The notes under the pieces were generated by a model. The model had not been told where the DNA came from and did not search any database. It saw nothing but the letters and a program-made list of their open reading frames with translations. The position numbers were made by a program, and so were the translations under genes. A stretch of 64,000 nucleotides of DNA from Candidatus Woesearchaeota archaeon (GTDB lineage Archaea; Nanobdellota; Nanobdellia; Woesearchaeales; UBA9642), in assembly GCA_016928115.1 (NCBI GenBank), contig JAFGLI010000022.1, forward strand, positions 560 to 64,559. The letters run 5' to 3'. The first letter of the stretch is position 1, and each line of letters starts with the position of its first letter. Shown piece by piece: positions 3,224 to 59,578 of this stretch.

Positions 3224-3384
3224 AAAAATCCTACTACGCTCATCACAACCCCACACTTTGTATGGGAACGTGGTAAGCTAAGTCTGGCCATGCCATGATT
3301 GCCAAAAAACAATCAATGACATTCACGGCACAGACGCACTTTTTCAATGCAACTGAGGAAAAAGAAAACATTAATAAATGAAAT
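3196..3384 (+). repeat. Repeat cassette copy 1: A-rich coding tail + stop, ~140-nt structured core, conserved 3' flank 'attaataaatgaaat'
   Basis: Aligns by eye to 18905..19113 across the full length with few substitutions. Differences are concentrated in predicted loops. Confidence 0.6.
3214..3353 (+). ncRNA. Candidate structured RNA/DNA element, copy 1 (unknown family)
   Basis: 14-bp terminal stem: gttgcattgaaaaa (3214-3227) pairs with tttttcaatgcaac (3340-3353). Internal helices: cccaca/tatggg, gtctggcc/ggcacagac with a 1-nt bulge, tgattg/caatca. Visibly GC-richer than its surroundings. Coding polarity unknown; the + strand follows the upstream gene. Confidence 0.45.
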
Positions 3385-18316: not shown

Positions 18317-18931
18317 ATGGAAAAAAACAGGAAATCGAACTCAGAATCAGCATATTTCGGATTTGTTCTTCTGATTATTATTATAATGGCATTTCTGTTC
18401 TTCACTGCGCTGGGCAAAGATATAGAAAGGTCAGAAAAAACAGGGGAAAGGAACATTGACAGCAATGAAGTAATGTCTCTGGCAGGAATAATAATATTAT
18501 CACTTTCTGTTTTTGTTTTGATAATTCTGGTTGTATTCAGGTTCAACAAAGAAACCATGCCCCTCATAGGAAAATCCGGATTTACTCATGTAACCGGGCA
18601 TAAAAGAGAGCACCATCCCTCAAATTATAACCTGCTGAAAAGCAGGGTTGCAAGATATATGAAGAAAAAACTATCCCGGGAAGAGATCGAGGAAAAGATG
18701 GAAAAAGATGGATGGGAAAGGATAATAACAGACCTGGCAATATATGACATAAAGACAAAAGGAAAGACAAAAGGAAAAGACCTTGAAGGGTTCATAAAAA
18801 AACACCTTGGCAAAGGGTTAAAGAGTTCAAGGATAAGAAGCATTTTAGTTAATGCAGGGTGGAGTTCAAAAGAGATAAACAAGGTTATAATAGAGATGCA
18901 TGAAAAAAGAGCAAAAAAGGGGCTGCGTTGA
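18317..18931 (+). CDS. Membrane protein with basic C-terminal domain (204 aa)
   Basis: Two TM helices followed by a K-rich soluble domain. Last codons and TGA stop lie inside repeat element copy 2. Confidence 0.45.
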   Translation: MEKNRKSNSESAYFGFVLLIIIIMAFLFFTALGKDIERSEKTGERNIDSNEVMSLAGIIILSLSVFVLIILVVFRFNKETMPLIGKSGFTHVTGHKREHHPSNYNLLKSRVARYMKKKLSREEIEEKMEKDGWERIITDLAIYDIKTKGKTKGKDLEGFIKKHLGKGLKSSRIRSILVNAGWSSKEINKVIIEMHEKRAKKGLR

Positions 18932-19113
18932 AAAAGTCCTACTACGCTTACCACAACCCCACACTAAACTATGGGAACATGGTAAGCTCCGTCTGGCCAT
19001 GCCATGATTGTCAAAAACAATCAATGACATTCACGGCACAGACGAACTTTTTCAACGCAGCCCAGAAACAATAATTTTTTAAACTTCTTTTTAATATTAT
19101 TAATAAATGAAAT
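18905..19113 (+). repeat. Repeat cassette copy 2
   Basis: Aligns to 3196..3384. The 3' flank 'attaataaatgaaat' (19099-19113) contains the pgk ATG at 19107. Confidence 0.6.
18920..19063 (+). ncRNA. Candidate structured RNA/DNA element, copy 2
   Basis: 17-bp perfect terminal stem: gggctgcgttgaaaaag (18920-18936) pairs with ctttttcaacgcagccc (19047-19063). Internal helices are identical to copy 1, with variable loops (cttt g vs ctaaac; ccaaaaaa vs tcaaaaa). Confidence 0.45.
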
Positions 19114-25953: not shown

Positions 25954-28812
25954 TTAAATTATTTTAACAGGGAATTTGTGATACTCATCATCACCAAAAA
26001 AATCTGTTGGATGACAGCTATATGTTATTTTCCCTCCGCTATAAGTGAAACAATCATTATCCGCCCACCATGCTGTTGTAAAAGGAGTTCTATCACAACC
26101 TTGGCATTCAGCAGCATCTACACATTTAACGCCATTCCAATATTGGCCACTTGGACAGCATCTTCCATAAGTGTCTGGGTCAAGAGGGTTATCTCCCTGG
26201 GAGCAGTAGGCTTCATCATCAGGAGAGGAATATGAAGTATCTCTGACAGCTCTGTTTACACCAGGAGGTTGTTTACCACATACTGCAGATTTCTTGTTTG
26301 TAGAAGTTACTTTTTTATAACAATCCTCATCTCCACAATCTATCTTACCATCATTATCATCATCTATGCCGTTGTTACAGTTTTCTCTAGGGAACCATAC
26401 AGGGTCTGATGAATCATACATATCATACCATTCACTAAATCCTTCAGTCATGGTCTGGACTCTTACAGTCATGGCTAATGCCTTATTATAAAAATCATCA
26501 TTAATGTTTGAAAGAGTAAAGGTTTTTGTACATCTATAAGTATATCTTCCTCCACTAGTGCCTGTGCTTATACAGGGCATTTTATCAGGAGTATCAGTAT
26601 CATAATAGCCATTGAAATAAACAGTATCTGCAGTAGTACTGGTTTCCCATGCCCTTGTTGCTTCACAATTTCCAAAATTACATTCACCTGCCCATATAAA
26701 GGCAGATATATAATCTAAAGTATTCATGGTTGAACTTATATCACATCTTAATGTTACACTTTCACCCGGAGCAAAGAATCCATTAGTAATTGAACAGGAT
26801 TCAATAATTGGTGTCCTATCACAATAACTACCACTATAATCCTTAATCCATCTCCATCTGCCCCCTTCATAAACACAAGTGTAATCATCCAATACATTAC
26901 ATTCTGTTCCACTGTAACATCTTTCTTCACATCCCCTGGTACTATCACAATCTAAATAATCAATATCACACCTGAATGTACATGAGGACCTTGATAATAT
27001 ACATCCTGGGGGAGTAGAGCTTTCACACTGGTCATAATAATCAGGCCAACACATTGGTTGGTCATAAAGCCCTTCACATCCGGACCCGCCGGAAGGGGAG
27101 CCTGTACATCTGCAAGTGCCATCAACACATGAGCAGGAATTTGCAGAATACAAGGAATATTCACAATAATTATTGTAAGGGTTTGCATGAGAATAATGAG
27201 GATTTTTTACATCCGGAACATTTATTTCACAACTGGCACAATCCGTATTCCCTGTACATGGGCCTTCAACAGGAACACCATATATAGGATATATATCCCC
27301 GTAACAAAAACCCTCAAAAGAGTTTTCACAACAGGCAGTTCTGGGAGCTGAAAAGGTTTGCCTGCATGTAATATCACAAGGACTAATGCCATCACAGTCA
27401 GGATCATCACAATCATATAAATTATCACAGTCATTATCTATTCCGTCTGAACAACAATTACCATAATATGAACAAAAATCATTTTCAGTTTCAGTTCCAC
27501 ATCTTCTATCTGAAGTTAAATCACATTCATTCCAGGGTGGACCACCAGCATTAGGCCTTGTGCCTCCACAACCATCTGTAGTGTCACATTCATTATAATA
27601 CTCACAGGAAACACAAGGACTAATGCCATCACAGTCAGGGTCATCACAATCATATAAGCCGTCGCAATCATTATCAGCACCATCATCGCAATTGGTTTCT
27701 GTGGAAGGAACACTTGTTGTCCACTTCCAATCACCACTGTTGGGCTTTACACAAGTATAACCATCTTTATTATTACATTCTGTTCCACTGTAACATCTTT
27801 CTTCACAACCATCATCATAATTATAATTACATTCAAGATAATTATCATTGCAACTGAACTGGCAGTTCCCGCTGTCTAAGTCACAAGTAGGTTTTGTTCC
27901 CCCCCTACAGTCGGGATCCCAATCTCCATCACATCTACATTTTCCACCTTCACACATACATGTTCCAACACGGCCTTGTTCATAATAACAACTGCTTGAA
28001 ACTAAATCAGTATTAGGAAAACCAGGATCTGAACCAGAGCGGCTACCACATGAATAACAGTCATAAGTATTATAACAATTATTATCAGATGCTGAATTAT
28101 AGCAAGAGGTACTGTAAGAATCAGCACAACACACATCATCAACTACAAAGTCTTGCCTGCATCCGCAATTACAATCAGGATCTTCAATACCTGGTTTACA
28201 ATCTATTCTGCCGTCGCAGTCATTATCTACGCCATCACCACAATTGGTTTCAGGGTCTCCCTCCCTATGTTCACAGCCATTATCCCAATTATCATCACAG
28301 TTTTGCCAGCCGGATTGACATTTAACATTTACAACTAAACATCTAAGAGGATCTGCTCCTAAGAGAGGATCAGGCCAATGCCATAATCTATATCTTGTAT
28401 AGCCCTCAGGTAAATGATTAATTACATCATCAGAACACGGACCAGTAAGCACATCGTAACTAACATGAACACCAGATTTTGCAAACGCTTTAGTGCATCT
28501 TGCAGTATTGCCCCCACCAATACAATTACCAATATCACAAGTAAGCAAACTGATTCCTAAGTCTGGGGAAGAAAGTGAATTACACTCGCTCCTATCATCA
28601 TAAAAATAATATCCGGATGGGGTTGTAATCTGGCTCAGACAATCAGATTCTGAACATACCCCACAATCACTCCAACCAGTATAGATTTTAAACAAAGCAG
28701 AATCTCTGCATAACTCTGATCCTGCCGCACTAACAAAACCAATTGAAAACATAAACATAATTATTACAATTATAAAAAACAACATCTTTCCTTTTATTTT
28801 ATTTAATTTCAT
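25954..28812 (-). CDS. Giant secreted cysteine-rich protein with MopE-like putative metal-binding repeats (952 aa)
   Basis: Signal peptide 'MLFFIIVIIMFMFSIGFVSAAGS'. More than 100 Cys residues. Repeated 'G(A/I)DNDCDG(L/R)xDCDDPDCDGISPC' and 'NCNNGIDDDNDGKIDCGDEDC' motifs. Internal duplicated modules 'GCEERCYSGTECN'. Confidence 0.65.
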   Translation of the reverse strand: MKLNKIKGKMLFFIIVIIMFMFSIGFVSAAGSELCRDSALFKIYTGWSDCGVCSESDCLSQITTPSGYYFYDDRSECNSLSSPDLGISLLTCDIGNCIGGGNTARCTKAFAKSGVHVSYDVLTGPCSDDVINHLPEGYTRYRLWHWPDPLLGADPLRCLVVNVKCQSGWQNCDDNWDNGCEHREGDPETNCGDGVDNDCDGRIDCKPGIEDPDCNCGCRQDFVVDDVCCADSYSTSCYNSASDNNCYNTYDCYSCGSRSGSDPGFPNTDLVSSSCYYEQGRVGTCMCEGGKCRCDGDWDPDCRGGTKPTCDLDSGNCQFSCNDNYLECNYNYDDGCEERCYSGTECNNKDGYTCVKPNSGDWKWTTSVPSTETNCDDGADNDCDGLYDCDDPDCDGISPCVSCEYYNECDTTDGCGGTRPNAGGPPWNECDLTSDRRCGTETENDFCSYYGNCCSDGIDNDCDNLYDCDDPDCDGISPCDITCRQTFSAPRTACCENSFEGFCYGDIYPIYGVPVEGPCTGNTDCASCEINVPDVKNPHYSHANPYNNYCEYSLYSANSCSCVDGTCRCTGSPSGGSGCEGLYDQPMCWPDYYDQCESSTPPGCILSRSSCTFRCDIDYLDCDSTRGCEERCYSGTECNVLDDYTCVYEGGRWRWIKDYSGSYCDRTPIIESCSITNGFFAPGESVTLRCDISSTMNTLDYISAFIWAGECNFGNCEATRAWETSTTADTVYFNGYYDTDTPDKMPCISTGTSGGRYTYRCTKTFTLSNINDDFYNKALAMTVRVQTMTEGFSEWYDMYDSSDPVWFPRENCNNGIDDDNDGKIDCGDEDCYKKVTSTNKKSAVCGKQPPGVNRAVRDTSYSSPDDEAYCSQGDNPLDPDTYGRCCPSGQYWNGVKCVDAAECQGCDRTPFTTAWWADNDCFTYSGGKITYSCHPTDFFGDDEYHKFPVKII
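26897..27817 (-). repeat. Intragenic repeat: 35-nt identical cores at 26897-26931 and 27783-27817
   Basis: Both encode the duplicated 'EERCYSGTECN' module of the Cys-rich protein. Confidence 0.6.
27375..27657 (-). repeat. In-frame duplicated module: ~46-nt near-identical cores at 27375-27420 and 27612-27657, 237 nt apart
   Basis: Both encode 'YDCDDPDCDGISPC'. The 79-codon spacing indicates tandem domain duplication. Confidence 0.6.
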
Positions 28813-44828: not shown

Positions 44829-47162
44829 ATGAAAGGCTATATTGTTGATTCTAACTACAAATATGAAAAAGATAAAAATATAATCCATTTATACGGCAGG
44901 CTGGAAAATGGAGAATCCTTCTTAGTAAAAAAAGAATACGGGCCTTATTTTTACATTAAAAAAAATGACAAAAACAAATTAGAAAAATTAAAAATAGAAG
45001 ATGAAATTGAAACAGAAGAAACAGACATGAAAAACTTCAATGATGAAGAAGTTGTTAGAATAATCACAACAAAACCAAAATATGTAAAAGAAATAAGAGA
45101 AAAACTGAAAGAAAATGATATTGCAACTTATGAAGCAGATATAAGATTTACCCAAAGATATTTCATCGACAATGACATAAAAAGAACAATAGAAATCAAG
45201 GGTGAATATGTAAATGGTGAATATGTAAGCCGCGTATACGATGAGCCGGATATAAAGCCTGCTGAATGGAGAGAGCCGAATCTTAAATTATTATCTGTCG
45301 ATATTGAAACAAGTAAAGACACAAAAAACCTTTATTCAATTTCTTTATACACTGAAAACTATAAAAAATGCTTTATCAATTACAACGGCAATAAAAAACT
45401 AAGAAATGCTGTAAAATGCGAAAATGAAAAAGAGCTTATTGAAAAATTCAAGAAAGAAGTTCAAAAACTGGATCCTGATATAATAACCGGATGGAATTTT
45501 GTTGATTTTGATTTAAACCAATTAAGAAAATTCTTTGAAAAACACAATATAAAATTTTCCATTGGCAGAGGCACTAAGGAAACATATCTGAGAATATATA
45601 ATGACTTCATGAGAAGCTCTGTAGCAAATATAGAAGGAAGAATGGTTTTGGACGGAATAGAGATGCTCAGGAAATCCTTTATCAGTGTAAGGGACTATAA
45701 GCTGGAAACTGTTTCAAGGCAATTTTTAAGTGAGGGAAAAACCATTACCTCTGAAGGAAAAAACAAGGGGGAAGAAATAAACAGGGCATATAAGGAAAAC
45801 CAGGAAAAACTGGTCGAATATAATCTCAAAGATGCTGAACTGGTTTACAGAATACTGAATATTTCAGGAGCATTAAAACTATCTATGGAAAGGTCATTAT
45901 TGACAGGAATGCCCCTGGACAGGATTTCAGCAACTGTTTCAAGTTTTGATTCACTTTACTTAAGAAAGCTGAAAGAAAAAGGCTATGTGGCTGAAAACCG
46001 TGAATTCCATGTAAAAGAAAAGCCTTTGACAGGGGGCTTTGTCCTTGAATCAAATCCGGGCATATATGATTATGTTATTCTTGTGGATTTCAAAAGCCTG
46101 TACCCAAGCATAATAAGAACTTTTAATATTGACCCTTTGATGTTTGTTGAAAAGCCCGGAAAAAAAGAAAAAAACGAGCTGATTGAAACCCCGAACAAGG
46201 CGTATTATAAAAAGGAAAAAGGGATACTGCCTGAGATAATAGGGGAGATATGGGATGAAAGGGAAAAAGCAAAGAAAAGAAAAGACAATTTAGCAAACTA
46301 TGCATTAAAGATACAGATGAACTCATTTTACGGTGCTTTGGGCAATCCAACATGCAGGTTCTTCAATCCTATGATAGGAAACTCCATAACTTTTTTTGGC
46401 CAGAAAATCATAAAACTAACTATGGAAAAAATAAAAGAGATGGGTCATGAGGTAATATATGGAGACACAGACAGTGTTTTTGTGAATGTAATTACAAAAG
46501 ATGAAAAAGAGGCTGAAAAAACAGGCAGAGAGATTGAAAAAAATATAAATGAATTCTATAAAAAATGGGTGAAGGAAAAATACGGCATGGAAAGCTTTTT
46601 GCACCTTGAATTTGAAAAAACATTCATAAGGTTTTTCATACCAAAAATAAGGCATTCTGTGAAAGGGGCAAAGAAAAGATATGCCGGCCTTATAAAAGAA
46701 AAAGGCAAGGAAAAAATAAGCATTACAGGTTTGGAATTTGTAAGAGGAGACTGGACAGAATTATCAAAAAAATTCCAGTACGGGTTACTGGATAAGGTTT
46801 TCCATAAGAAAGAGGTCGGTGATTACATAAGGAATTTTGTTAAGAAGCTGAAAAAAGGGGAGTTTGATGATGAGCTTGTATATGAAAAAAGAATCACTAA
46901 GCCTTTAAATGAATATATAAAAACAACACCTCCCCACGTAAAGGCAGCAAGGAAAATGAAATCACTGCAGACAAACCTCATAAAGTATATTATGACAGTG
47001 GACGGGCCTGAGCCTGTAACAGAGATAAAACATTCTATTGATTATGAACATTATGCTGAAAAACAGCTCAAGCCGATAGCTGACACAATACTTACATTCT
47101 ACAACACCAATTTTGATGATGTTTTAAAAGAAAGTAAACAAAGCAATCTCTTCAGATTTTAG
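44829..47162 (+). CDS. polB: DNA polymerase, family B
   Basis: Exo I 'VDIETS', Exo II 'NFVDFDL', Exo III 'YNLKDAELVY', motif A 'DFKSLYPSII', motif B 'KIQMNSFYGALG', motif C 'YGDTDS'. Confidence 0.9.
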   Translation: MKGYIVDSNYKYEKDKNIIHLYGRLENGESFLVKKEYGPYFYIKKNDKNKLEKLKIEDEIETEETDMKNFNDEEVVRIITTKPKYVKEIREKLKENDIATYEADIRFTQRYFIDNDIKRTIEIKGEYVNGEYVSRVYDEPDIKPAEWREPNLKLLSVDIETSKDTKNLYSISLYTENYKKCFINYNGNKKLRNAVKCENEKELIEKFKKEVQKLDPDIITGWNFVDFDLNQLRKFFEKHNIKFSIGRGTKETYLRIYNDFMRSSVANIEGRMVLDGIEMLRKSFISVRDYKLETVSRQFLSEGKTITSEGKNKGEEINRAYKENQEKLVEYNLKDAELVYRILNISGALKLSMERSLLTGMPLDRISATVSSFDSLYLRKLKEKGYVAENREFHVKEKPLTGGFVLESNPGIYDYVILVDFKSLYPSIIRTFNIDPLMFVEKPGKKEKNELIETPNKAYYKKEKGILPEIIGEIWDEREKAKKRKDNLANYALKIQMNSFYGALGNPTCRFFNPMIGNSITFFGQKIIKLTMEKIKEMGHEVIYGDTDSVFVNVITKDEKEAEKTGREIEKNINEFYKKWVKEKYGMESFLHLEFEKTFIRFFIPKIRHSVKGAKKRYAGLIKEKGKEKISITGLEFVRGDWTELSKKFQYGLLDKVFHKKEVGDYIRNFVKKLKKGEFDDELVYEKRITKPLNEYIKTTPPHVKAARKMKSLQTNLIKYIMTVDGPEPVTEIKHSIDYEHYAEKQLKPIADTILTFYNTNFDDVLKESKQSNLFRF

Positions 47163-48146: not shown

Positions 48147-48479
48147 TTAATTACCTGTTTTGTTTCTTAATCTCTTTTTGCGCTGCTCATTTAACTGTGT
48201 GACAAAATAATCCAGGCAGTCAAGGGCACAGAAATGAGCCTTTTTTCTTAAGCCTTTTGGACCAAAATAAAGAACAAAAGACTCTTCAGCATTAAGCTCA
48301 GAATGGCAGACTGGGCATATTTTCCTGTGTGATTCATATTCTTCAATTCTGGATTCCACAATCTTCATAAAACTCCCTTTTTCAACCATATCTTTTAAAA
48401 ATTTCAATTCTTCAAAATCTGAATAATTAATAATCTCTTTTATTTTATCCGCAGTTTTTTCATTAATTATTTTTACCAC
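48147..48479 (-). CDS. Zinc-ribbon protein (110 aa)
   Basis: 'CPVCHSEL...FCALDC'. Confidence 0.4.
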   Translation of the reverse strand: MVKIINEKTADKIKEIINYSDFEELKFLKDMVEKGSFMKIVESRIEEYESHRKICPVCHSELNAEESFVLYFGPKGLRKKAHFCALDCLDYFVTQLNEQRKKRLRNKTGN

Positions 48480-49128
48480 CTTTTATTTTGTTTATTATCT
48501 GATTAGGGTCATAAAGAATAAAATTATTTTTCAGTATATCCAGAAAATATTTTTCGTTTTTACTCAATCCTTCAACCAGCTCATTTTCTGAATGGGTCCA
48601 GCATGCTATCTTATGGTCCTTATCATGCTCGTCTTTTATGTGCACATTGCTGTATTTTCCCCTTATCTCGTCCACTTTTTTCGTGATTATCAGAAAATCA
48701 AGGTCTGCATCACTTTTATCTTTTATTAATGCTACAGCATCGCATTTATCAAAAAGCTCATAATTATCCAGAAAGAATTTCAATACAAGATATTGTTTTG
48801 ATATTTCATCAAAAAAGAAAACAGTGAAAATCAATTCCCTTATTCCTGAAAGAGATAATATCTTGCTTGCAGAAAAACCTTCTTTCATTATAAGCAGATA
48901 TACTGATTTATTTTTTAAGGAATATATTGTCCTGGGCTTTCCTGATTTATTTGTATGTAAGGTTTCCCCCTTCACTATGCCGTAGGCTTCAAGGATTTTT
49001 AACTGGTAAGTTATATTGGCAACAGAGCTTTTTGTTATCTGGGCTAATTCTGTAGGAGATAATGGTTTTTCAGTTATCTTTTCAATCAGTTTCCACCGTG
49101 CAGGCGTAAACCAGGAGTTTAATTCCAT
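48463..49128 (-). CDS. ArsR-like wHTH regulator with C-terminal unknown domain (221 aa)
   Basis: 'LSPTELAQITKSSVANITYQLKILEAYGIVK'. Confidence 0.5.
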   Translation of the reverse strand: MELNSWFTPARWKLIEKITEKPLSPTELAQITKSSVANITYQLKILEAYGIVKGETLHTNKSGKPRTIYSLKNKSVYLLIMKEGFSASKILSLSGIRELIFTVFFFDEISKQYLVLKFFLDNYELFDKCDAVALIKDKSDADLDFLIITKKVDEIRGKYSNVHIKDEHDKDHKIACWTHSENELVEGLSKNEKYFLDILKNNFILYDPNQIINKIKGGKNN

Positions 49129-49430: not shown

Positions 49431-50663
49431 ATGAAAATATTCATGCTGGGGTGGGAGTTTCCTCCTTTTTTCGCAGGAGGAGTAGGAGTTGTATGCTATC
49501 AGCTTAGCAAATATCTCAGTAAAAGAGGGATTGAAGTTAATTTTGTAATGCCTTCTGGCCCTAAAGAAGCAGAATCTGATTTTGTAAACCTGATTATTGC
49601 AAATAACCTGGTTTCAGATAAAAACATACATATAAAGAAAATTGACTCTCTGCTGATGCCTTATATAACATCCGAAGGTTATTTGAATTTGCTGAAAAAC
49701 AAACTAATGTTCAAGGATTTTGGTTCAACAGGAGAAATTTACGGGGAAAATCTTTTTGCAGAGATTGAAAGGTTCAAGGAAAAGCTTTTAATAATAGGAA
49801 AAAATATGGAGTTTGATGTAATTCATGCCCATGACTGGGTAACTTTTCCTGCTGCTGTTGCATTAAAGGAAGCAACAGGAAAGCCTTTGATTGTTCATAT
49901 ACACATAACTGAATTTGACAAGACAGGAGGCGTGCATGCAGACCCCGGGGTATACCGGATTGAAAAAACAGGAATGGATAAAGCTGATGTTATTATTGCA
50001 ATAAGCAACTTCATCAAAAACAGGCTGACTGATAAATATTATGTTGACCCGGCAAAAATAAAGGTAATACATAATGCCGCAGAAATACCTGAAAAAGATT
50101 ACAAAACAAGCCATAAAATTAATGAAAATGACAAGGTTGTTTTATTCGTAGGAAGAATAACTTTGCAGAAAGGCCCTGATTATTTTGTTGAGGCTGCAAA
50201 AAAGATAGTTGAAAAAGAGCCTAATGTAAAATTTGTGATGACTGGCTCAGGAGACATGTTTCCGCAGATAATCAACAAAGTTGCAGAACTGGGATTGACA
50301 AACAAATTCATATTTCCTGGTTTTTTAAACAGGGAGCAGGTTTTCAGGCTGTACAGCATGGCAGATGTGTTCATTATGCCTTCTGTATCAGAGCCTTTTG
50401 GTTTGGTGCCTCTGGAGGCAATGGCCTCGAAAACACCTGCAATAATATCAAAACAATCAGGAGTAAGCGAAATAGTGGGCCATGTAATCAAGGTTGATTT
50501 TTGGGATGTCAATGATATTGCTGCAAAAACACTGGCAATCCTGAAATACCAGACACTGAACAATGAACTGAAAAAACACGGGAGCATGGAAGTAAAAATG
50601 CTTAATTGGGATATCCCTGCACAAAAATGTATTGAGCTTTACAATCAGTTAGTATATCATTAA
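49431..50663 (+). CDS. glgA: Glycogen/alpha-glucan synthase, archaeal GT5-like (GT-B fold)
   Basis: N-terminal 'MKIFMLGWEFPPFFAGGVGVV' resembles archaeal GlgA 'K-x-GGL'. C-terminal 'SEPFGLVPLEAM' E-x7-E motif. Confidence 0.65.
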   Translation: MKIFMLGWEFPPFFAGGVGVVCYQLSKYLSKRGIEVNFVMPSGPKEAESDFVNLIIANNLVSDKNIHIKKIDSLLMPYITSEGYLNLLKNKLMFKDFGSTGEIYGENLFAEIERFKEKLLIIGKNMEFDVIHAHDWVTFPAAVALKEATGKPLIVHIHITEFDKTGGVHADPGVYRIEKTGMDKADVIIAISNFIKNRLTDKYYVDPAKIKVIHNAAEIPEKDYKTSHKINENDKVVLFVGRITLQKGPDYFVEAAKKIVEKEPNVKFVMTGSGDMFPQIINKVAELGLTNKFIFPGFLNREQVFRLYSMADVFIMPSVSEPFGLVPLEAMASKTPAIISKQSGVSEIVGHVIKVDFWDVNDIAAKTLAILKYQTLNNELKKHGSMEVKMLNWDIPAQKCIELYNQLVYH

Positions 50664-50715: not shown

Positions 50716-51987
50716 ATGGTAAGTGTGTGCTTTTATTTCCAAGTTCATCAGCCAAACAGGCTGAGAGAATACAGTATATTTGACATTGGAAATAATTCAG
50801 ATTATTTTGATGAAAAAAAGAATGAGGAAATAATGAAAAAAGTGGCAGGAAAATGCTACCTTCCCACAAACAATCTAATGCTCTCCCTTATTGAGAAATA
50901 CAAAGGAAAATTCAGGATAAATTATTCAATATCAGGAACCGCCATAGAGCAGTTTGAAAAATATGCACCCGAGGTCCTTGAAAGCTTTAAAAAATTAAAT
51001 AAAACAGGCTGTGTTGAATTCCTTAATGAAACATACCATCATTCACTGGCATTTATTTATTCAAAAGAGGAATTCAGGAAACAGGTAAAAATGCACAGGA
51101 AAAAGATAAAAGAGCTTTTCGGCCAGGAGCCCGATGTGTTCAGGAATACTGAACTAATACTGAATAACGAGCTTGCAAGAGAGGCTGAGAAAATGGGATT
51201 CAGGAGCATTCTGGGAGAAGGAGCAGACCATATACTAAAAGGAAGAAGCCCTAATTTTGTTTATAAGCCAAAAACAAGCCAGAAGATAAAACTATTGCTG
51301 AAAAATTACAAATTAAGTGATGACATTGCATTCAGGTTTTCAAATAAAGGCTGGAAGGAATATCCCCTGACAGCCGAGAAATATGCGCAGTGGATAAGCT
51401 CAATAAACGGCAACGGCAATGTTGTGAACTTATTCATGGATTATGAGACATTCGGAGAGCACCAGTGGGAAGATACAGGCATATTCAAATTCATGAGAAA
51501 ACTTCCTGAGGAAATATTAAAACATCCTGATAATGAATTTGTGAATATCAGCGAGATAATAAAAAAATATGAGCCTGTTGGGGAACTTGACATACACAGT
51601 TTTGTCTCATGGGCGGATATAGAAAGGGATTTGAGTGCATGGATGGGAAATAAACTGCAGGAAAGCTCTCTCAATGAATTATACCGGATTGAAAAATACA
51701 TTAAAGCCACAAAAGACAAAAAACTTATTGAAGAATGGAGAAAAATGACAACAAGCGACCATTTTTATTATATGTGCACCAAGTGGTTCAATGACGGCGA
51801 TGTCCACAAATATTTTAATCCCTATGACAGCCCCTATAATGGGTTTATAACATTTACCAACATACTTAATGATATGGTTTTAAGGATTAAAGAAATAATT
51901 CCTGAAATCAAAAACCAGGATAATGAAAAAAATATGCTGAACATAAATGACAATCCTTCAGAGAAGCTAAAAAATATAGAGATATGA
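50716..51987 (+). CDS. GH57-family alpha-glucan-active enzyme (amylase, branching enzyme or glucanotransferase type)
   Basis: N-terminal 'FYFQVHQP', 'NYSISGTAIEQFE' and 'ETFGEHQWE' match GH57 conserved regions. Confidence 0.7.
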   Translation: MVSVCFYFQVHQPNRLREYSIFDIGNNSDYFDEKKNEEIMKKVAGKCYLPTNNLMLSLIEKYKGKFRINYSISGTAIEQFEKYAPEVLESFKKLNKTGCVEFLNETYHHSLAFIYSKEEFRKQVKMHRKKIKELFGQEPDVFRNTELILNNELAREAEKMGFRSILGEGADHILKGRSPNFVYKPKTSQKIKLLLKNYKLSDDIAFRFSNKGWKEYPLTAEKYAQWISSINGNGNVVNLFMDYETFGEHQWEDTGIFKFMRKLPEEILKHPDNEFVNISEIIKKYEPVGELDIHSFVSWADIERDLSAWMGNKLQESSLNELYRIEKYIKATKDKKLIEEWRKMTTSDHFYYMCTKWFNDGDVHKYFNPYDSPYNGFITFTNILNDMVLRIKEIIPEIKNQDNEKNMLNINDNPSEKLKNIEI

Positions 51988-52042
51988 GTTTTAAAAAAAA
52001 TAAAGAATAGAATAAAACATAAAAAAGGTTTTAAAAAAAGAG

Positions 52043-52390
52043 GTGTGTAATATGGCTAAAAAAAAGAAAAAAACAAGCAAAACAAAGGGAAAAAAGAAAA
52101 CAAAAGCTACAAAAAAAAGCAGCATACTGAATAAAGAAATATCTCCTGAAAAATATTTTATATTAAATTCAGGAAAAGCAATTGCCACAGTAAGGGAACT
52201 GGTTGAAGAACTGCAGATAATGAATGATGAATTATTCAGGCACCATGTGAATGACGAAAGAAATGACTTTGCAAACTGGATTCAGGATGTATTTGAAGAT
52301 AAAAAACTGGCAAAGAAATTAAGGGAAATCAAAGACAGGGAAAAAACAAGAACAGCTATTTATAAGCACATAGCAGAGTTATTTTATTAA
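52043..52390 (+). CDS. Small Lys-rich protein, paralogue A (115 aa) with 'HHVNDERNDFANWI' motif
   Basis: Shares a ~45-aa conserved domain with the next gene; the two contain a nucleotide-identical 38-mer. Confidence 0.5.
   Translation: MCNMAKKKKKTSKTKGKKKTKATKKSSILNKEISPEKYFILNSGKAIATVRELVEELQIMNDELFRHHVNDERNDFANWIQDVFEDKKLAKKLREIKDREKTRTAIYKHIAELFY
52244..52281 (+). repeat. 38-nt segment identical to 52583..52620
   Basis: 'catgtgaatgacgaaagaaatgactttgcaaactggat' occurs in both paralogues while the flanking codons have diverged. Confidence 0.8.
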
Positions 52391-52462
52391 TAATAAAGAA
52401 ATGACAAGCTGCTTGGTAATTGATTGAGGTAATAATATAAAAAATATAAAAGGGGTGAGATA

Positions 52463-52972
52463 ATGCTAGGTAAAAATGTTGCTCAGGGACATGAATTTAT
52501 TTTCTGCAATAATGAAAAAGCCCATAATCTGGATGAATTCAAAAAAATAGTTGAAAATCTGGAAGAAAACGAATTTCAGCATCATGTGAATGACGAAAGA
52601 AATGACTTTGCAAACTGGATAACATGGGCATTAGGGAATGAAACTCTTGGGAATGAGGTTAATGAACTGAAAACAAAAGAGGAGATAATTGAATCTTTAA
52701 ACAATGCAATACAGAAAAAAAAACAGGATAAAATAAAAGAAAAAACAGAAGACAATGAACAAAAACAGAAAGAAGAGCTGATAAAAGAAAAAGATAATTC
52801 TGAAAAGGAAATTAAACCTGAAATTAAGAACAAACCGGCCAAGGTTATTAAAAATCTCATTAACAAGGAAAAAGAAAAAACAAAGGCTAAAGAATTCCTG
52901 ATTATTGAATTTGTAATAGGGCTTATAGCTGGTTTGGTTATAGGGATTATCTTGGGTATATTTGTATTTTAA
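52463..52972 (+). CDS. Paralogue B (169 aa): shared domain + K/E-rich linker + C-terminal TM helix
   Basis: 'EFQHHVNDERNDFANWI'; C-terminal 'FLIIEFVIGLIAGLVIGIILGIFVF'. Confidence 0.5.
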   Translation: MLGKNVAQGHEFIFCNNEKAHNLDEFKKIVENLEENEFQHHVNDERNDFANWITWALGNETLGNEVNELKTKEEIIESLNNAIQKKKQDKIKEKTEDNEQKQKEELIKEKDNSEKEIKPEIKNKPAKVIKNLINKEKEKTKAKEFLIIEFVIGLIAGLVIGIILGIFVF

Positions 52973-53005: not shown

Positions 53006-54784
53006 ATGACAGAAACAAAACCTGACTTAGTTTTTGAGTCATCATGGGAAGTATGCAACAAGGTGGGGGGCATACATACTGTTATTACAAGCAAGGCTCC
53101 CTTAATGGATGAAAACTACAAGAGATATTTCCTTATAGGGCCTTATTTTGATGAAAAAGCCAAAAGGGACTTCTCAGCATCGAAAATACCTGACGGGTGG
53201 GGAGATGTATTCAAAAAACTTGAAGAAAAAGGAATAAAGGCATATTTCGGAAAATGGGAAATAAAAGGTGAGCCTAAAGTTATTCTTATTGATTATAAAA
53301 ACCTCATAGACAAAAGAAATGAAATGAAAAAAAAATTGTGGGAAAATTTCAAGATAGACACATTATTCTCAAAAATGGAATTTGATGAGCCCATGGTCTG
53401 GAGCTATTGTGTTTCTGAATTGCTCAGCCTGATAGAGCAAAAAGAGAAAAACAACAAAATAGTGGGGCATTTTCATGAATGGATGGCCGGCCTGACATCA
53501 TTATTCCTTAAAATAAAAAAATCCAATATAAAAACTGTATTTACAACCCATGCAACAATGCTGGGAAGAACACTTGCAGGCTCAGGATTTGACCTTTATA
53601 ACAATTTACAAAATATAGATCCTGAAAAAGAAGCAAGGCAAAGAGGCCTGATTGAAAAGTTTACCACAGAAAAGGCATGTGCTAATGAAAGTGATGTTTT
53701 TACCACAATATCTGAAATAACAAAAAAAGAAGCCAAGCATTTCCTGGGCAAGGATGCTGACATATTGCTCCCAAACGGGCTGGATATGGAAAGATTCCCT
53801 ACAATGGAAGAAAACTCAATTAAACACATAACCTGCAGGAAAATACTAAGGGAATTCATAAGTTATTATTTCTTCCCATACAACACTTTCCAGCTTGACC
53901 ATAATCTGATCTATTATTTTCTCGGTAGAAATGAATTCAAGAATAAGGGAGCTGATATAACCATAAAAGCCCTTGGAAAATTAAATGACCAGTTAAAAAA
54001 GGATAAATCAAAAAGAACAGTAACTTTCTTTTTCTGGATACCTTTGGAGAATAAAGGAATAAAAAGTGAAATAAGGGAGAACAAGGACTATTATTATCAT
54101 ATTAAAAGAAATGTTGAAACAAACTCAGAAGACATATTGAAAAGGATAATCTATGATTTTGTATCCCAAAGGGACTTTGGAAATGAGAGTTTGTTCACAA
54201 AAGATTTTCTTATGGGCATAAAAAAAGACATAATAGCATTCAAAAGAAAGGGAAATCCCCCATTATGTACACACATAATAGAAAATGAGGACAATAATGA
54301 AATAATAAAATTACTAAGGGAAGTCGGGCTGGATAATAAAGAAGATGACAAAGTAAAAGTAATCCTTAACCCAGTTTACCTGAACGGCAATGACGGGCTT
54401 TTCGACCTTGAGTATTATGATGCAATGGCCGGATGCCACCTGGGGCTATTCCCCAGCTATTATGAGCCGTGGGGCTATACGCCGCTGGAAAGCATTTCAA
54501 TGTCTGTCCCTGCAGTAACATCTGACCTAGCAGGTTTCGGGAAATTCATTGAAGACAAGGCATCTGGAAAAACACCGGGAATTTATGTATTGAAAAGGGA
54601 AAAAAAGGAAGAAAAGGACATGATTATGGAGTTGTTTAAGATTATGTATAAATATGCAATAATAAGCCATCCTGAAAGGGTCGATAATAAAATGAATGCA
54701 AAAAAGGTTTCTATGCTGGCTGACTGGAATGAAATGGTAAAATATTATTTCGCAGCACATGCCCTTGCTGTTAAAAAAAGGTGA
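53006..54784 (+). CDS. Glycogen synthase, GT3 (eukaryote-like) family
   Basis: 'VFESSWEVCNKVGGIHTVITSKAP' and 'LGLFPSYYEPWGYTPLESISMSVPAVTSDLAGFG' closely match eukaryotic Gsy signatures. Confidence 0.75.
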   Translation: MTETKPDLVFESSWEVCNKVGGIHTVITSKAPLMDENYKRYFLIGPYFDEKAKRDFSASKIPDGWGDVFKKLEEKGIKAYFGKWEIKGEPKVILIDYKNLIDKRNEMKKKLWENFKIDTLFSKMEFDEPMVWSYCVSELLSLIEQKEKNNKIVGHFHEWMAGLTSLFLKIKKSNIKTVFTTHATMLGRTLAGSGFDLYNNLQNIDPEKEARQRGLIEKFTTEKACANESDVFTTISEITKKEAKHFLGKDADILLPNGLDMERFPTMEENSIKHITCRKILREFISYYFFPYNTFQLDHNLIYYFLGRNEFKNKGADITIKALGKLNDQLKKDKSKRTVTFFFWIPLENKGIKSEIRENKDYYYHIKRNVETNSEDILKRIIYDFVSQRDFGNESLFTKDFLMGIKKDIIAFKRKGNPPLCTHIIENEDNNEIIKLLREVGLDNKEDDKVKVILNPVYLNGNDGLFDLEYYDAMAGCHLGLFPSYYEPWGYTPLESISMSVPAVTSDLAGFGKFIEDKASGKTPGIYVLKREKKEEKDMIMELFKIMYKYAIISHPERVDNKMNAKKVSMLADWNEMVKYYFAAHALAVKKR

Positions 54785-54788
54785 GAAT

Positions 54789-55784
54789 ATGCCTGAAATA
54801 AGAAAAGACTATCTTATGGACAGATATGTGATAATTGCCTCAGAAAGAAGCAAAAGGCCTGTGCTTTTCAAAAAAACCAAAGCAGCTAAAAAAAAGAGCA
54901 ATTATGATAAGCAGTGCCCCTTCTGTAAAGGAAATGAAGCAATGCTTCCGGGCATTAATAAAGAGTATAATGTAAAAAAAGGAAAATCAAGTGACATAAT
55001 AAGGATAGTGCCCAATAAATACGAAGCTGCTATGCAAAAAGGAAATCCTGAATTAAAGAATGATAATGTATTTTACACATATTCTTCTTCATACGGCATT
55101 CACGAGGTTATTATAGAAACGCTTGAGCACGGCGTTGATTTTGAGGAACTGCCGCTGAACCAGTTAAAAAAAATCATTGAAGTTTATATTGAAAGCACAA
55201 AGGAATTAATAGGAAAACCAAATATAAAATATGTCTCTTTGTTCAAGAACCAGGGAAAAGAGGCAGGGGCATCAATCAACCATACCCATTCACAGATAAT
55301 AGGTTATAATATTGTTCCTGAATTGGTGAAAAAAAAGAATAAAAAAGCTAAGGAATTCTTTGAAAAAAACAATAGATGCGCTTATTGTGAAATAATTGAA
55401 AGGGAAAAAAACTCTTACAGGAGGGTTTTTGAAAACAACTCATTTATATCATTCTGCCCTTATGCATCAAGGTTTCAGTTTGAAGTGCTGTTAATTCCTA
55501 AAAGGCATTTTGCCTCTTTAATAGATATGGACAAAAAAGAAATAAAAGACCTTGCCGAAGCCCTGAAAAAAATATTAACAACTCTTGAAAAAATGGGACC
55601 TACGCCGTTTAATATAATGTTTTTCAACACCCACAATGTTGAGGACAACAAGGATTATTTCCACTTCCATATTGAGATTGCTCCAAGGATAAGCAACTTT
55701 GCAGGGTTTGAGATAGAAACAGAAACAATAATCAACACAACAACACCAGAAGATGCTGCTTCTTTTTACAGGGAAAACCTGTAA
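54789..55784 (+). CDS. galT: GalT-family (HIT superfamily) hexose-1-phosphate nucleotidyltransferase / NDP-glucose phosphorylase
   Basis: 'INHTHSQII' H-x-H-x-Q motif and N-terminal Zn-binding 'CPFCKGNE'. Start placed at 'MPEIRK' after the upstream stop. Confidence 0.7.
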   Translation: MPEIRKDYLMDRYVIIASERSKRPVLFKKTKAAKKKSNYDKQCPFCKGNEAMLPGINKEYNVKKGKSSDIIRIVPNKYEAAMQKGNPELKNDNVFYTYSSSYGIHEVIIETLEHGVDFEELPLNQLKKIIEVYIESTKELIGKPNIKYVSLFKNQGKEAGASINHTHSQIIGYNIVPELVKKKNKKAKEFFEKNNRCAYCEIIEREKNSYRRVFENNSFISFCPYASRFQFEVLLIPKRHFASLIDMDKKEIKDLAEALKKILTTLEKMGPTPFNIMFFNTHNVEDNKDYFHFHIEIAPRISNFAGFEIETETIINTTTPEDAASFYRENL

Positions 55785-55828: not shown

Positions 55829-56824
55829 ATGAAAGTTATTATGCCTGTGGCTGGAAAAGGAACAAGGCTAAGGCCCCATACACACACAACAGCAAAACCC
55901 TTAGTCGAAGTTGCCGGGAAAGCTGTTTTAGGCCATATACTGGACAGATTAGAAGGATTAGACATAAATGAACTTATTTTTATTACAGGAAAGGATTATG
56001 AAAAAGATATTATTGATTATGTAAAAAAGAATTATTCCCAATATAAAGTTTCTTATGAAAGGCAAAAAGAAAAACTTGGAACTGCACATGCAATTTACCA
56101 GGCAAAAAAACACATAGATGAAGATGTTTTAATAGTCTATTGTGACAGCATAATTGAAGGTGATTTTGATATAATAAAAAAAACCAAAGCTGACGGCATA
56201 ATGTGGGCTAAAGAGGTTGAAGACCCTTCAGCTTATGGTGTTCTGGTTCTGGATGAAAATAATTACATAAAAAAAATGGTTGAAAAACCAGAGGAATTTA
56301 TCAGCAATCTGGCCAATGTTGGCATTTATTATATAAAAAATTATGAATTGTTGTTCAGGGAAATTGAGTATATTATAAAAAAAGACATTAAAAGAAAAGG
56401 AGAATATTATGTAACTTCTGCTTTCCAGAGAATGTTTGAAAAAGGGGAAAAAATGATTATAGGAAAAGTGGATAAATGGCTTGACTGCGGTAATATTGAT
56501 TCATTGCTTGAAACCAACCAGTACTTACTATCTAAAAAAAATAAAATAGAGGAAAAAGGGAAAAACTGCAAAATCATAAAGCCTGTTTATATTGAAAAAG
56601 GCGCAAAACTGGAAAATTCAACAATAGGCCCGTTTGTTTCAATAGGAAAAGGCACAGAAATCAAAGACAGCTTTATTGAAAACAGTATTATCGGCCTGGA
56701 AAACATCATATCAAATGTCAGAATAAACTCCTCAGTCATAGGAAGCTATACAAAAGTCTCTGGTGGAGAATTTAAAAAATTAAACATAGGAGACCATTCT
56801 CATATTGAAATACGTTTTGAGTAA
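55829..56824 (+). CDS. Sugar-1-phosphate nucleotidyltransferase (glucose-1-P adenylyl/uridylyl-transferase-like) with C-terminal left-handed beta-helix
   Basis: 'MPVAGKGTRLRPHTHTTAKPLVEVAGK' NTP_transferase signature. C-terminal hexapeptide-like repeats. Confidence 0.75.
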   Translation: MKVIMPVAGKGTRLRPHTHTTAKPLVEVAGKAVLGHILDRLEGLDINELIFITGKDYEKDIIDYVKKNYSQYKVSYERQKEKLGTAHAIYQAKKHIDEDVLIVYCDSIIEGDFDIIKKTKADGIMWAKEVEDPSAYGVLVLDENNYIKKMVEKPEEFISNLANVGIYYIKNYELLFREIEYIIKKDIKRKGEYYVTSAFQRMFEKGEKMIIGKVDKWLDCGNIDSLLETNQYLLSKKNKIEEKGKNCKIIKPVYIEKGAKLENSTIGPFVSIGKGTEIKDSFIENSIIGLENIISNVRINSSVIGSYTKVSGGEFKKLNIGDHSHIEIRFE

Positions 56825-57683: not shown

Positions 57684-57841
57684 TTTTTAACGATGTTACA
57701 AGTTTAAACCTGAAATAAATAAATACTTATAAACCTTTTGATAGTTTTACTTCTTTTTTGTAATAAAATATTTCTATGTTAATTTCAATTAAATTTATAA
57801 ACTGCTTTTGTTTCATTAATAAAAAAGGGTTGGGGACTCTC

Positions 57842-59578
57842 ATGATAAAACATTCTATTCTGAGAAAAGAGGTGAACGGTGAAGAGAAAAATAAAGAGAT
57901 TACAGGCTTTCTTCTGTCAAACCAGAATATTTTCTTTTCCCTTTCTTTTGGCGAAAATTTCACAAATTACAATGGATTATTTTCTTTTTATGACAATATG
58001 CCTTACAAAACAATAGAGAATATTTATTTGGATGAAAAAGAAAATGGAAAAATAATAGTAAATAAGATAAATTCTGCTGAAAGAATAAAAGGAAAAGCAA
58101 AAGAGATTTTTTCCCTGGAAAACAACTGCCTGAACTATGAAGTCAACGATTACAATGGATGGATAAATATTGAGCTTGACTTCAGAAGCATATTCTCAAA
58201 GCCGAGGTTCGGAAGGATATACAGCATTTACAAAGACAAAATCAAGAATAAAAAACACATTATTATTGAATATACTAATGAGGAAAACAAGGAAAAGCAT
58301 TTTATAGTTCTTTGCGGGGCAGAAAAATATAAATTAACTAACAACTGGGTAAGGAAGGAATATATATATGATAAAAAAAGAAGCAGTAATTTTGAATTCT
58401 ATGTTTATCAGGCCCTGAAAATAAAATGTGAGGAAAAAATAAAAATTATAATCAGTACGGGCAGGACAAAAGAGGAAGCCATATTAAATATTAATGAGAA
58501 CAACAGCCAAGGATTCCTGAAAAAGATTCCTGAAAAAGATGTGGATTTTGCATACATATGCGCTTTAAATTCATTATCCGGCTTAATGAAGGATGAAAGA
58601 AATATAAGGGCAGGGCTGCCCTGGTTTTTCCAGATATGGTCAAGGGATGAGCTGATTTCACTGAATGCATTCATACAGGAAGGAAAATATGATATAACTA
58701 AAAAAATATTGTGGAAATATCTTGAAAAAATAAATGAAAAAGGTAGGATTCCCAATATTCTTGATAATGATGAAAGCACTAATGCTGATTCAACAGGATG
58801 GCTATTTATGAGGATTAAGGATTTTATCGGAAAGTTCAATAAAAAAACAGACAGGAAAGACGGGGATTACATAAGTGAAAAACTCAGGGAAACTATTGAA
58901 AAAAATGAGAAAAATTACATGGAAAACAGCCTCATACATAATTACGCCCAGGAAACATGGATGGACAGCATATCAAGAGAGGGATTCTGCATTGAAAACC
59001 AGGCTTTTTATCTCAATATGCTTAAGCTGATGCAAAAATTCGATAATAGCCAAAAATGGAGGAAAAAAGAAAAAGATTTCAGAAAAACTGTAAAAGAAAG
59101 ATTTTTTGAAAACGGAATCCTTAAAGACAACCTTAAAGACAATGAGATAAGGCCTAATGCCTTTATTGCATATTATATATACCCTGAATTGCTTACTAAA
59201 AAAGAATGGGAGAGCGTATTTGACAATTTATTAGAAAGCCTGTGGCTTGACTGGGGGGGAATCAGCACAGTTGACAAAAAAAGCAAAGATTTTCATGAAT
59301 ATTATACGGGGGAAAATGACTTCAGCTACCACCAGGGCGACTCATGGTTCTGGCTTAATAATCTGGCTGCTGTAAGTATGATTAAGCTGAATAAGAAGAA
59401 GTACAAAAAATATATTGAGAAAATAAAAGAAGCTTCAACAAAGGAAATATTATTCGGGGGACTTATAGGCCATGCCTCTGAGTTATCTGATGCTAAAGAA
59501 TTAAATCCCGGCGGAACCTTCTGCCAGGCCTGGAGCAGCGCCATATTCATAGAACTCTGCAGAATTATTTGTAGTTGA
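57842..59578 (+). CDS. Glycogen debranching enzyme (amylo-alpha-1,6-glucosidase, GDE C-domain type)
   Basis: 'GLPWFFQIWSRDELISLNAF' and 'HQGDSWFW' match the GDE_C signatures. Start taken at the internal Met after a 'ggggac' RBS-like motif. Confidence 0.7.
   Translation: MIKHSILRKEVNGEEKNKEITGFLLSNQNIFFSLSFGENFTNYNGLFSFYDNMPYKTIENIYLDEKENGKIIVNKINSAERIKGKAKEIFSLENNCLNYEVNDYNGWINIELDFRSIFSKPRFGRIYSIYKDKIKNKKHIIIEYTNEENKEKHFIVLCGAEKYKLTNNWVRKEYIYDKKRSSNFEFYVYQALKIKCEEKIKIIISTGRTKEEAILNINENNSQGFLKKIPEKDVDFAYICALNSLSGLMKDERNIRAGLPWFFQIWSRDELISLNAFIQEGKYDITKKILWKYLEKINEKGRIPNILDNDESTNADSTGWLFMRIKDFIGKFNKKTDRKDGDYISEKLRETIEKNEKNYMENSLIHNYAQETWMDSISREGFCIENQAFYLNMLKLMQKFDNSQKWRKKEKDFRKTVKERFFENGILKDNLKDNEIRPNAFIAYYIYPELLTKKEWESVFDNLLESLWLDWGGISTVDKKSKDFHEYYTGENDFSYHQGDSWFWLNNLAAVSMIKLNKKKYKKYIEKIKEASTKEILFGGLIGHASELSDAKELNPGGTFCQAWSSAIFIELCRIICS

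Follow-up and report, generated by a model that had tools for sequence, protein, structure and literature searches.

A putative split OrfY-type protein pair in the alpha-glucan clusters of DPANN archaea and an apparent short gene conversion between its members

The closest described relative of the proteins considered here is OrfY from Thermoproteus tenax (PDB 4CSO), a soluble chain with two repeats of about 78 residues, the layout also modelled by the Pfam family DUF5752 (PF19027). Family and structure are thus already known, and the function is not established; searches for DUF5752, for OrfY (T. tenax, trehalose) and for 4CSO found nothing relevant in the accessible literature. In T. tenax, orfY is reported to lie upstream of treT, a sugar-nucleotide glycosyltransferase gene (Kouril et al. 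2008, Arch Microbiol 190:355). In this study we analyzed 64,000 nucleotides of contig JAFGLI010000022.1 from a Candidatus Woesearchaeota archaeon (hereafter the window), in which two adjacent genes of this family, denoted A (52052..52390, + strand) and B (52463..52972, +), lie inside a glycogen cluster. By sequence, the two are a split pair of the OrfY type that is conserved and non-catalytic, and each member bears an anchoring appendage of its own. The accessory factors of archaeal GT3/GT5 glycogen synthesis are an acknowledged gap, and the GT3 synthases of DPANN archaea have no known glycogenin or regulatory partner (PMC11046441). Some Woesearchaeota genomics papers mention GH57 and glycogen genes and do not mention the A/B proteins.

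Gene A encodes a predicted soluble single-repeat DUF5752 protein of 112 aa and gene B a predicted tail-anchored one of 169 aa, and they match at 100% the 112-aa NCBI/JGI protein JW949_04435 and the NCBI protein JW949_04440, respectively. The preliminary description of this locus had listed two adjacent genes of 115 and 169 aa. Both open reading frames (ORFs) exist and the length of B stands, but A is 112 aa long from its ATG (52052); the alternative start of the ORF listing, GTG at 52043, which would give 115 aa, falls within a Shine-Dalgarno-like GAGGTG (52040-45) located 6 nt 5' of that ATG. The ATG of B is preceded at 4 nt by GGGGTGA. A search of the 64-kb window with a hidden Markov model (HMM) of the family found no further DUF5752 copies.

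The domain common to A and B spans about 78 aa, at residues 33-112 of A (52148..52387, +; AlphaFold2 (AF2) model, family HMM and 4CSO fold match) and residues 9-86 of B (52487..52720, +; profile match and AF2). It had been described as centred on F/Q-HHVNDERNDFANWI, and this was borne out: BLASTP between A and B aligned only the motif region, with 19 of 37 residues identical around F/Q-HHVNDERNDFANWI (E 2e-12), and both proteins match the same Pfam family. Against PF19027, whose curated cut-off is 23, A scored 27.0 bits and its domain alone 28.1 bits, while B, at 22.7 bits, was slightly below the cut-off; with the family HMM built here, the E values of A and B were 2e-36 and 1e-33. PF19027 was the sole Pfam family matched by all 8 domain sequences, B types included. 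No NCBIfam family matched A or B, and PHROGs gave insignificant matches only. The pair had been called one of unknown function; the function is indeed uncharacterised, but Pfam already lists the domain as DUF5752 and one structure, 4CSO, has been solved, and the HMM search with the shared domain led to no well-characterised family unrelated to glucans. The PF19027 profile has 208 positions, and single domains align to its first or its second half (A covers positions 17-84 or 128-198, B positions 18-113), so the Pfam model itself is a tandem duplication of the ~78-aa unit. Neither A nor B has the layout of PF19027 and 4CSO, that is, two tandem repeats in one ~200-aa chain, and we classify both, from these profile matches, as single-repeat, split variants of the DUF5752/OrfY family.

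When a profile of the eight domain sequences was searched against solved structures, it retrieved one, OrfY (E 1.4e-5), and 4CSO aligned in two stretches with an NDFxxW motif in each; the motif that the domain has in common with OrfY is (H)HV-x4-NDF-x2-W. The AF2 model of A had a predicted local distance difference test (pLDDT) score of 84 overall and 92-96 over residues 31-110, and that of B 88 overall and 95-98 over the domain. The order of elements is the same in both models (strand, strand, helix, helix, bridge, bridge, helix, helix, helix), with the two-residue bridge pair flanking a variable loop. In Foldseek searches against the PDB, the A model gave 4CSO as the top match, with a probability of 0.92 but an E value of 0.22 and a template modelling (TM) score of 0.45 over 82 columns, and besides OrfY there was no plausible fold relative. 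The B model did not retrieve 4CSO, its long helices dominating the search.

The domain alignment contains 4 invariant and 7 near-invariant columns, in which the polar residues H, N and D and the aromatic W are conserved. Such a motif (HH-x5-ND-F-x2-W) could belong to a metabolite-sensing subunit that binds a sugar, sugar phosphate or nucleoside diphosphate (NDP)-sugar and modulates enzymes allosterically in the manner of stand-alone ACT or CBS domains, and it fits with this reading that the domain occurs fused to metabolic enzymes and ATPases and beside enzymes using NDP-glucose or glucans. In the AF2 model of A, however, N-D-F stands at the start of helix 3 and F/W/I/F have core-facing spacing, so the motif may be structural, and membrane anchors, polycationic tails and long coiled coils would be unexpected for a simple allosteric sensor. 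We therefore regard the sensor as improbable.

Outside the domain, A and B carry different appendages. Residues 1-32 of A (52052..52147, +) form a predicted disordered polycationic tail, as judged from AF2 and from comparison of orthologues. The poly-Lys N-terminus noted earlier corresponds to 14 K/R in these 32 residues, with acidic residues nearly absent; pLDDT was 47-54 over residues 1-20, and residues 1-30 were modelled as disordered. A basic tail is found in nearly all A-type orthologues, with a median of 40 residues, 14 K+R and 3 D+E. In B, the K/E-rich linker and the C-terminal transmembrane anchor of the preliminary description were both recovered. The charged linker (52721..52894, +) extends the long helix of the AF2 model, which runs over residues 72-113 and is followed, after a low-confidence break, by a second helix at 126-168. 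The anchor, FLIIEFVIGLIAGLVIGIILGIFVF (52895..52969, +), was identified by hydropathy, AF2 and orthologues, the Kyte-Doolittle mean being 2.99 over a 19-residue window from residue 150 of 169. KEKTKAK directly precedes the hydrophobic segment, and there is no N-terminal signal. The C-terminal transmembrane segment is kept in 42 B-type orthologues, while the total length of B-type proteins varies from 124 to 346 aa between genomes. Considering the single hydrophobic helix at the extreme C-terminus and the basic residues before it, B is predicted to be a tail-anchored membrane protein, and from this anchor its domain would face the cytoplasm.

The pair lies, as had been stated, between a GH57 alpha-glucan-active enzyme upstream (50716..51987, +; Pfam E 9e-83) and a GT3 (eukaryote-type) glycogen synthase downstream (53006..54784, +; Pfam Glycogen_syn, E 3.5e-147), which begins after a 33-nt gap 3' of B. 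The first gene of the cluster encodes a GT5/GT4-type glycogen (starch) synthase-like glycosyltransferase (49431..50663, +; Pfam Glyco_transf_5 and Glycos_transf_1), and all cluster genes share the + strand and either overlap or are spaced by 33-72 nt. To compare this arrangement among relatives, we used 80 loci (numbered with the prefix L), almost all from metagenome-assembled genomes (MAGs) of DPANN archaea, which were those scoring best against a profile derived from glycogen-linked members. Glucan genes were present in 61 of the 80 loci, a fraction that is inflated by selecting the loci with such a profile. In 55 loci, GH57 immediately precedes the small DUF5752 gene(s), in 37 GT3 immediately follows them, and 33 have both; the canonical adjacent pair, a gene for a soluble protein and then one for a protein with a C-terminal transmembrane segment, occurs in 42.

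The order GT5/GT4, GH57, small DUF5752 gene(s), GT3 thus recurs in DPANN genomes, with GT5, GH57 and DUF5752 as the constant core and GT3 sometimes divergent or absent. The sister genome L001 is syntenic, its A being 86% identical over the full length and its B 62%; for the near-identical homologue P0002 the identity to A was 91% over 77% of the query. L006 is also syntenic, with an A of 49% identity followed by a 132-aa protein that has the domain and a C-terminal transmembrane segment, and L004 and L005 are syntenic with A only. The two-repeat DUF5752 proteins of the exhaustive search described below adjoin alpha-glucan enzymes in all four cases with informative contigs: the gene follows GT3 in L089 and L091, lies between GH57 and a GH15 glucoamylase in L090 and follows a GH13 amylase in L093. 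DUF5752 loci are therefore found in the neighbourhood of alpha-glucan enzymes, and the tie to glucan metabolism that had been suggested from the position of the pair is strongly supported by conserved gene order, including that of the two-repeat members. The pair does lie between GH57 and GT3, but the most constant neighbour, which the preliminary description had missed, is GT5/GH57, not GT3. Conservation of the pair in other glycogen loci was confirmed by the 42 soluble-then-transmembrane pairs, and its absence from orthologous operons was not seen. As such, gene order and sequence together mark A and B as a conserved accessory pair of a DPANN alpha-glucan cluster (GT5/GT4, GH57, A, B, GT3). 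Separately, many of the records are titled 'uncultured Methanosarcinales archaeon' (TPA_asm MAGs; L008 and about 25 other loci) and are clearly DPANN/Woesearchaeota-like, the proteins of L008 being 86-94% identical to those of the window; one locus is labelled Saccharibacteria and one Alphaproteobacteria, and the record taxonomy looks unreliable.

The placement of the genes directly before GT3 in 37 of the 80 loci might suggest that A or B is a protein primer, glucosylated for example by GT5/GT4 and used by GT3 in the way of glycogenin. The DPANN GT3 is close to the eukaryotic enzymes, no glycogenin has been found in archaea (PMC11046441), and A-type proteins have a conserved Tyr (IYKHI). This Tyr, however, lies in a confidently predicted helix of the AF2 model and is missing from B, and neither protein matched GT8 or any other catalytic family in Pfam, even at E values up to 10. 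The tightest linkage is to GT5/GH57 and many loci have no adjacent GT3, and members of the family also stand beside purely degradative enzymes (GH15, GH13). A priming role, which the preliminary description had raised as speculation along with those of scaffold and membrane tether, thus finds no support and is very improbable.

An exhaustive profile search collected 4,899 clusters (50% identity) at E<=1e-3. Many members are A-like, of ~100-140 aa and mostly labelled Woesearchaeota or Nanoarchaeota, and many have two or three repeats. Others are fusions, whose partners are KaiC-like ATPases, HerA/DUF87 ATPases with CarboxypepD_reg repeats, the C-terminal subunit of transketolase, long coiled coils and a surface protein with a transmembrane segment, which carries the domain at its cytoplasmic end. 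Judging from these architectures, the DUF5752 repeat is a promiscuous module, not a part of a glucan-specific enzyme. With regard to the transketolase fusions, the gene for a C-terminal subunit with a C-terminal DUF5752 repeat is located at 13680-14936 in L012 and 7002-8225 in L066, similar genes are present in L017, L020, L023, L070, L072, L073 and L082, and in several Woesearchaeota the gene is often 4-5 kb downstream of the GT5-GH57-DUF5752 cluster.

One domain with such varied appendages (membrane anchor, polycationic tail, coiled coils, enzymes) resembles a cargo-binding tag carried by different anchors, and because fused two-repeat members also adjoin glucan enzymes, A and B probably pair as a split OrfY. 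We propose that A and B would join through the DUF5752 domain of each, matching OrfY with two chains instead of one, and that this heterodimer, itself non-catalytic, would position or regulate glucan metabolism by targeting or scaffolding. The shared domain would bind a common cargo, either the glucan particle or a glucan-active enzyme; B would tie this cargo to the membrane, and the polycationic tail of A may fix it on a polyanion, for instance the nucleoid. Other carriers of the domain (transketolase, KaiC-like ATPases, coiled-coil proteins) could be recruited to the same place. As a specific mechanism, this non-catalytic targeting or scaffolding role is offered as a tentative possibility. 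The explanation as a whole, namely an ancient accessory pair, an A-to-B conversion (see below) and a split-OrfY targeting/scaffolding device, is the one that we favour, by a modest degree.

Several observations weigh against this proposal, besides the choice of loci by a glycogen-linked profile. The pairing of A with B and the binding of glucan or enzymes are putative. Known carbohydrate-binding modules (CBMs) do not resemble this domain, which is small and largely helical, and no CBM family was matched by A or B in Pfam. It stands in non-glucan contexts in about a quarter of the related loci, so the cargo need not be glucan, and some genomes (for example L004, L013 and L015) have an A-type gene only, which indicates that B is dispensable. 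A and B are not more similar within genomes than between genomes, so there is no signal of co-evolution for a heterodimer. Finally, the depositors of 4CSO label OrfY a 'transcription factor', and a polycationic tail fits the DNA binding of a regulator as well as tethering.

The last two points lead to the main rival of the targeting/scaffolding role, in which the DUF5752 domain and the basic tail of A bind DNA to regulate transcription while the membrane-anchored B titrates A by heterodimerisation, a sequestration logic likened to that of Mlc/PtsG and anti-sigma systems. The tail of A is conserved as well as polycationic, regulators are often encoded within the operons they control, and the family accompanies both synthetic and degradative glucan genes, as expected of a regulator. 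On the other hand, no recognisable DNA-binding domain (helix-turn-helix (HTH), ribbon-helix-helix, zinc ribbon) was detected in A or B by Pfam, NCBIfam or fold comparison, the fold matches nothing but OrfY, and fusions to transketolase, ATPases, coiled coils and surface proteins are atypical for a DNA-binding domain. Moreover, the locus already supplies a more conventional candidate: a divergent gene upstream of the cluster (48463-49128, - strand) encodes a 221-aa winged-HTH protein with weak ArsR/Lrs14-type matches, and it is kept at that position in 21 of the 80 related loci. On sequence grounds it is a candidate regulator of the cluster, and we consider it unlikely that A and B fill this role themselves. 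The winged-HTH gene is overlapped by that for a 110-aa Cys-containing protein (the two together span 48147-49128, -), a partner retained in 20 of the 80 loci.

In addition to the shared domain, the preliminary description had pointed to a 38-nt stretch that is identical in the two diverged genes, and had offered gene conversion or a nucleotide-level constraint as its cause. The identity is exact. Within the 64-kb window, the 38-mer CATGTGAATGACGAAAGAAATGACTTTGCAAACTGGAT has exactly two copies, one at 52244..52281 (+) in A, where it encodes H-V-N-D-E-R-N-D-F-A-N-W-I (the last codon partial), and one at 52583..52620 (+) in B; allowing a single mismatch lengthens the match to 42 nt (52240-52281 versus 52579-52620). 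Outside the 14-codon motif, A and B have 44% DNA identity and 16% protein identity. A 38-nt repeat was obtained in none of 100 shuffled sequences. Granting the same residues, the 12 identical codons would be expected by chance with a probability of 4e-4 under the codon usage of the window, and only 18-45% of other pairs agree in the residues that occupy the four variable positions of the motif.

To determine the polarity of the change, we compared the window with one close outgroup only, the syntenic sister genome L001. The motif codons of L001 A (CAC CAT GTG AAT GAT GAA AGA AAT GAT TTT GCA AAC TGG ATT) are of the A type and keep the tract with two synonymous changes relative to the window, whereas those of L001 B (CAG CAT GTA AAT GAA AAC AAG AAC GAC TTT GCA AAC TGG ATA; peptide QHVNENKNDFANWI) differ from window B by 7 nt in 16 nt and by 4 residues. 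Window B has the codons of A and the peptide HHVNDERNDFANWI. At Asp36 (motif numbering), the codon is GAC in window B, GAT in L001 A and GAA in L001 B. Across 42 genomes, identity outside the motif was 0.40 between A proteins, 0.28 between B proteins and 0.27 between A and B, and in 77 of 84 cases the nearest neighbour belonged to the same type; by these comparisons, A and B are ancient paralogues. Since L001 B lacks the tract while L001 A keeps the A-type sequence, window B carries the sequence of A. We thus interpret the 38-mer as a short A-to-B gene conversion in the lineage of the window, with A as the putative donor. The informative sites place the minimal tract at 52588-52603 (7 differences, 16 nt), bounded by 52582 and 52621, so that the maximal tract is 52583-52620; it would be 52579-52620 only if the mismatch at 52582 postdates the conversion.

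Of the two causes first offered, the nucleotide-level one fared poorly. According to it, the 38-mer would be held by an RNA structure, a small RNA or protein site or recoding, or else would reflect chance or ancestral retention, and it could draw on the exact identity over 38 nt and on the long runs that two other genomes have at this motif. The tract, however, is not kept in the sister genome, where B differs at 7 of its 16 nt, and the runs in other genomes differ in sequence. No Rfam family matched at the 38-mer, and there was no excess of RNA structure, the folding z scores being -0.23 and +0.54. The codon identity, improbable by chance even with the residues granted, and the ancient divergence of A and B also argue against chance and retention. 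This reading is largely refuted, and we give it hardly any credence.

Across 55 adjacent pairs, the longest run shared by A and B had a median of 11 nt, and the outliers were the window (38 nt), L025 (38 nt), L077 (43 nt) and then L036 (22 nt), all at the same motif and with different sequences. An A/B identity of 101 nt in L058 proved to be an artefact of overlapping ORF calls. A permutation test with 42 pairs found no excess of A/B similarity within genomes (p 0.28-0.37), and the C-terminal part was slightly less similar within genomes than between them. The idea that A and B evolve in concert or co-evolve as a general rule was therefore rejected, and from the same negative test the conversions are sporadic; they are independent events, not a selected feature. 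NDFANW is the only stretch of the two genes still similar enough in DNA to recombine, which would explain why conversions are seeded there. Elsewhere in the family, the two repeats of P0124, a two-repeat DUF5752 protein of 174 aa, are nearly identical over their full length, which points to a recent internal duplication or homogenisation.

The remaining genes of the cluster and other features of the window are described here for completeness. GT3 is followed by genes for a GalT/HIT-like nucleotidyl-transferase or phosphorylase (54759-55784, +) and a sugar-1-phosphate nucleotidyltransferase, NDP-sugar pyrophosphorylase-like (55829-56824, +), both assigned by Pfam, and a GDE_C amylo-alpha-1,6-glucosidase, or debranching enzyme (57776..59578, +; Pfam), lies in the same neighbourhood and recurs in related loci. 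The cluster thus holds two glycogen-synthase-type enzymes, GT5/GT4-like and GT3, together with the GalT/HIT-like and pyrophosphorylase-like proteins, and there might be a division of labour in which, as an example, GT5 makes primers for GT3. In the 64-nt spacer between GH57 and A, an exact 12-nt direct repeat, GTTTTAAAAAAA, is present at 51988-51999 and 52028-52039, 40 nt apart; it may represent an archaeal promoter element inside the cluster, or nothing more than AT-rich spacer. A scan for bacterial-type promoters and terminators gave nothing interpretable, the models being bacterial and the host an archaeon. A family-B DNA polymerase gene (44829-47162) is located a few kb upstream of the cluster, and likewise in many related genomes (L008, L015, L026, L027, L029, L048, L054, L055, L077), so that synteny extends over a long range.

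Farther from the cluster, an intergenic direct repeat of ~165 nt, about 88% identical between copies, is found at 3197-3366 and 18905-19074, each copy just 3' of a + strand gene. Compared with shuffled sequences, folding is far better on either strand (z -6.5 to -11.4), with a long closing stem of terminal inverted repeats, and the copies differ by one or more compensatory changes (CAUUG/CAAUG versus CGUUG/CAACG). The repeat matched no Rfam family; it could be an element resembling a miniature inverted-repeat transposable element or an unannotated structured RNA. In addition, a 952-aa ORF (25954-28812, -) contains internal DNA repeats of 85-89% identity, pairing 27375-27438 with 27612-27675 and 26873-26934 with 27749-27810.

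Little of archaeal glycogen metabolism has been characterised, and this is especially true of the eukaryote-like GT3 synthases of DPANN archaea; a non-catalytic pair in the middle of the cluster in dozens of DPANN genomes is a testable candidate for the missing accessory or regulatory component. At the same time, a Pfam domain of uncharacterised function with an orphan crystal structure gains a functional context. Three elements appear to be undescribed: the single-repeat split architecture with its tail and anchor, the conservation of the split pair inside DPANN glycogen clusters and the family-wide link to alpha-glucan genes. A broader idea, that DUF5752 is an archaeal and especially DPANN counterpart of the eukaryotic glycogen-targeting modules, marking proteins for a glycogen particle or enzyme complex, is speculative and rather improbable as it stands. 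If it were true, A would tether the store to the nucleoid by means of its polycationic tail and B to the membrane, and tagged enzymes such as transketolase would join them, giving a positioned storage-carbohydrate metabolon in very small cells.

Compared with known cases of micro gene conversion, the tract described here is similar in being a bounded stretch of perfect identity inside diverged tandem paralogues, in being missing from the orthologous pair of the sister genome and in having an identifiable donor. It differs in its very small extent (16 nt for the minimal tract and 38-42 nt for the maximal one), in lying on the most conserved motif of the family and in having counterparts at the same spot, converted independently, in at least two other genomes. 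The 38-mer is of little weight in itself, an ordinary and clean small example of micro-conversion recurring at a conserved motif.

Among known proteins, OrfY and the Pfam model have the same ~78-aa repeat and motif as A and B, and OrfY is the only PDB match by sequence and the only plausible one by fold. OrfY, however, combines two repeats in one soluble chain, while here each gene has one repeat and the appendages differ by gene, a polycationic tail in A and a C-terminal membrane anchor in B; the neighbours here are GT5, GH57 and GT3, whereas that of OrfY is reportedly TreT. A second comparison is with PhaF and PhaM of polyhydroxyalkanoate granules, whose lysine/alanine-rich, histone-H1-like tail binds the nucleoid and helps to position the granules. 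They are likewise small non-catalytic proteins encoded beside a storage-polymer synthase, and a cargo-binding domain with a basic tail is what we propose, by analogy, for A. There is no relationship in sequence or fold, the storage polymer is another, and binding of DNA and glycogen by A is putative. The eukaryotic glycogen-targeting proteins, Stbd1 and others, carry CBM20/21/48. DUF5752 differs from these in being helical and in matching no CBM; its binding of glucan is putative, and Stbd1 is anchored N-terminally whereas B is anchored C-terminally. The likeness lies in the use of one small module in a membrane tether, in enzymes and in regulators, and in the layout of B, which similarly joins a membrane anchor, a spacer and the module.

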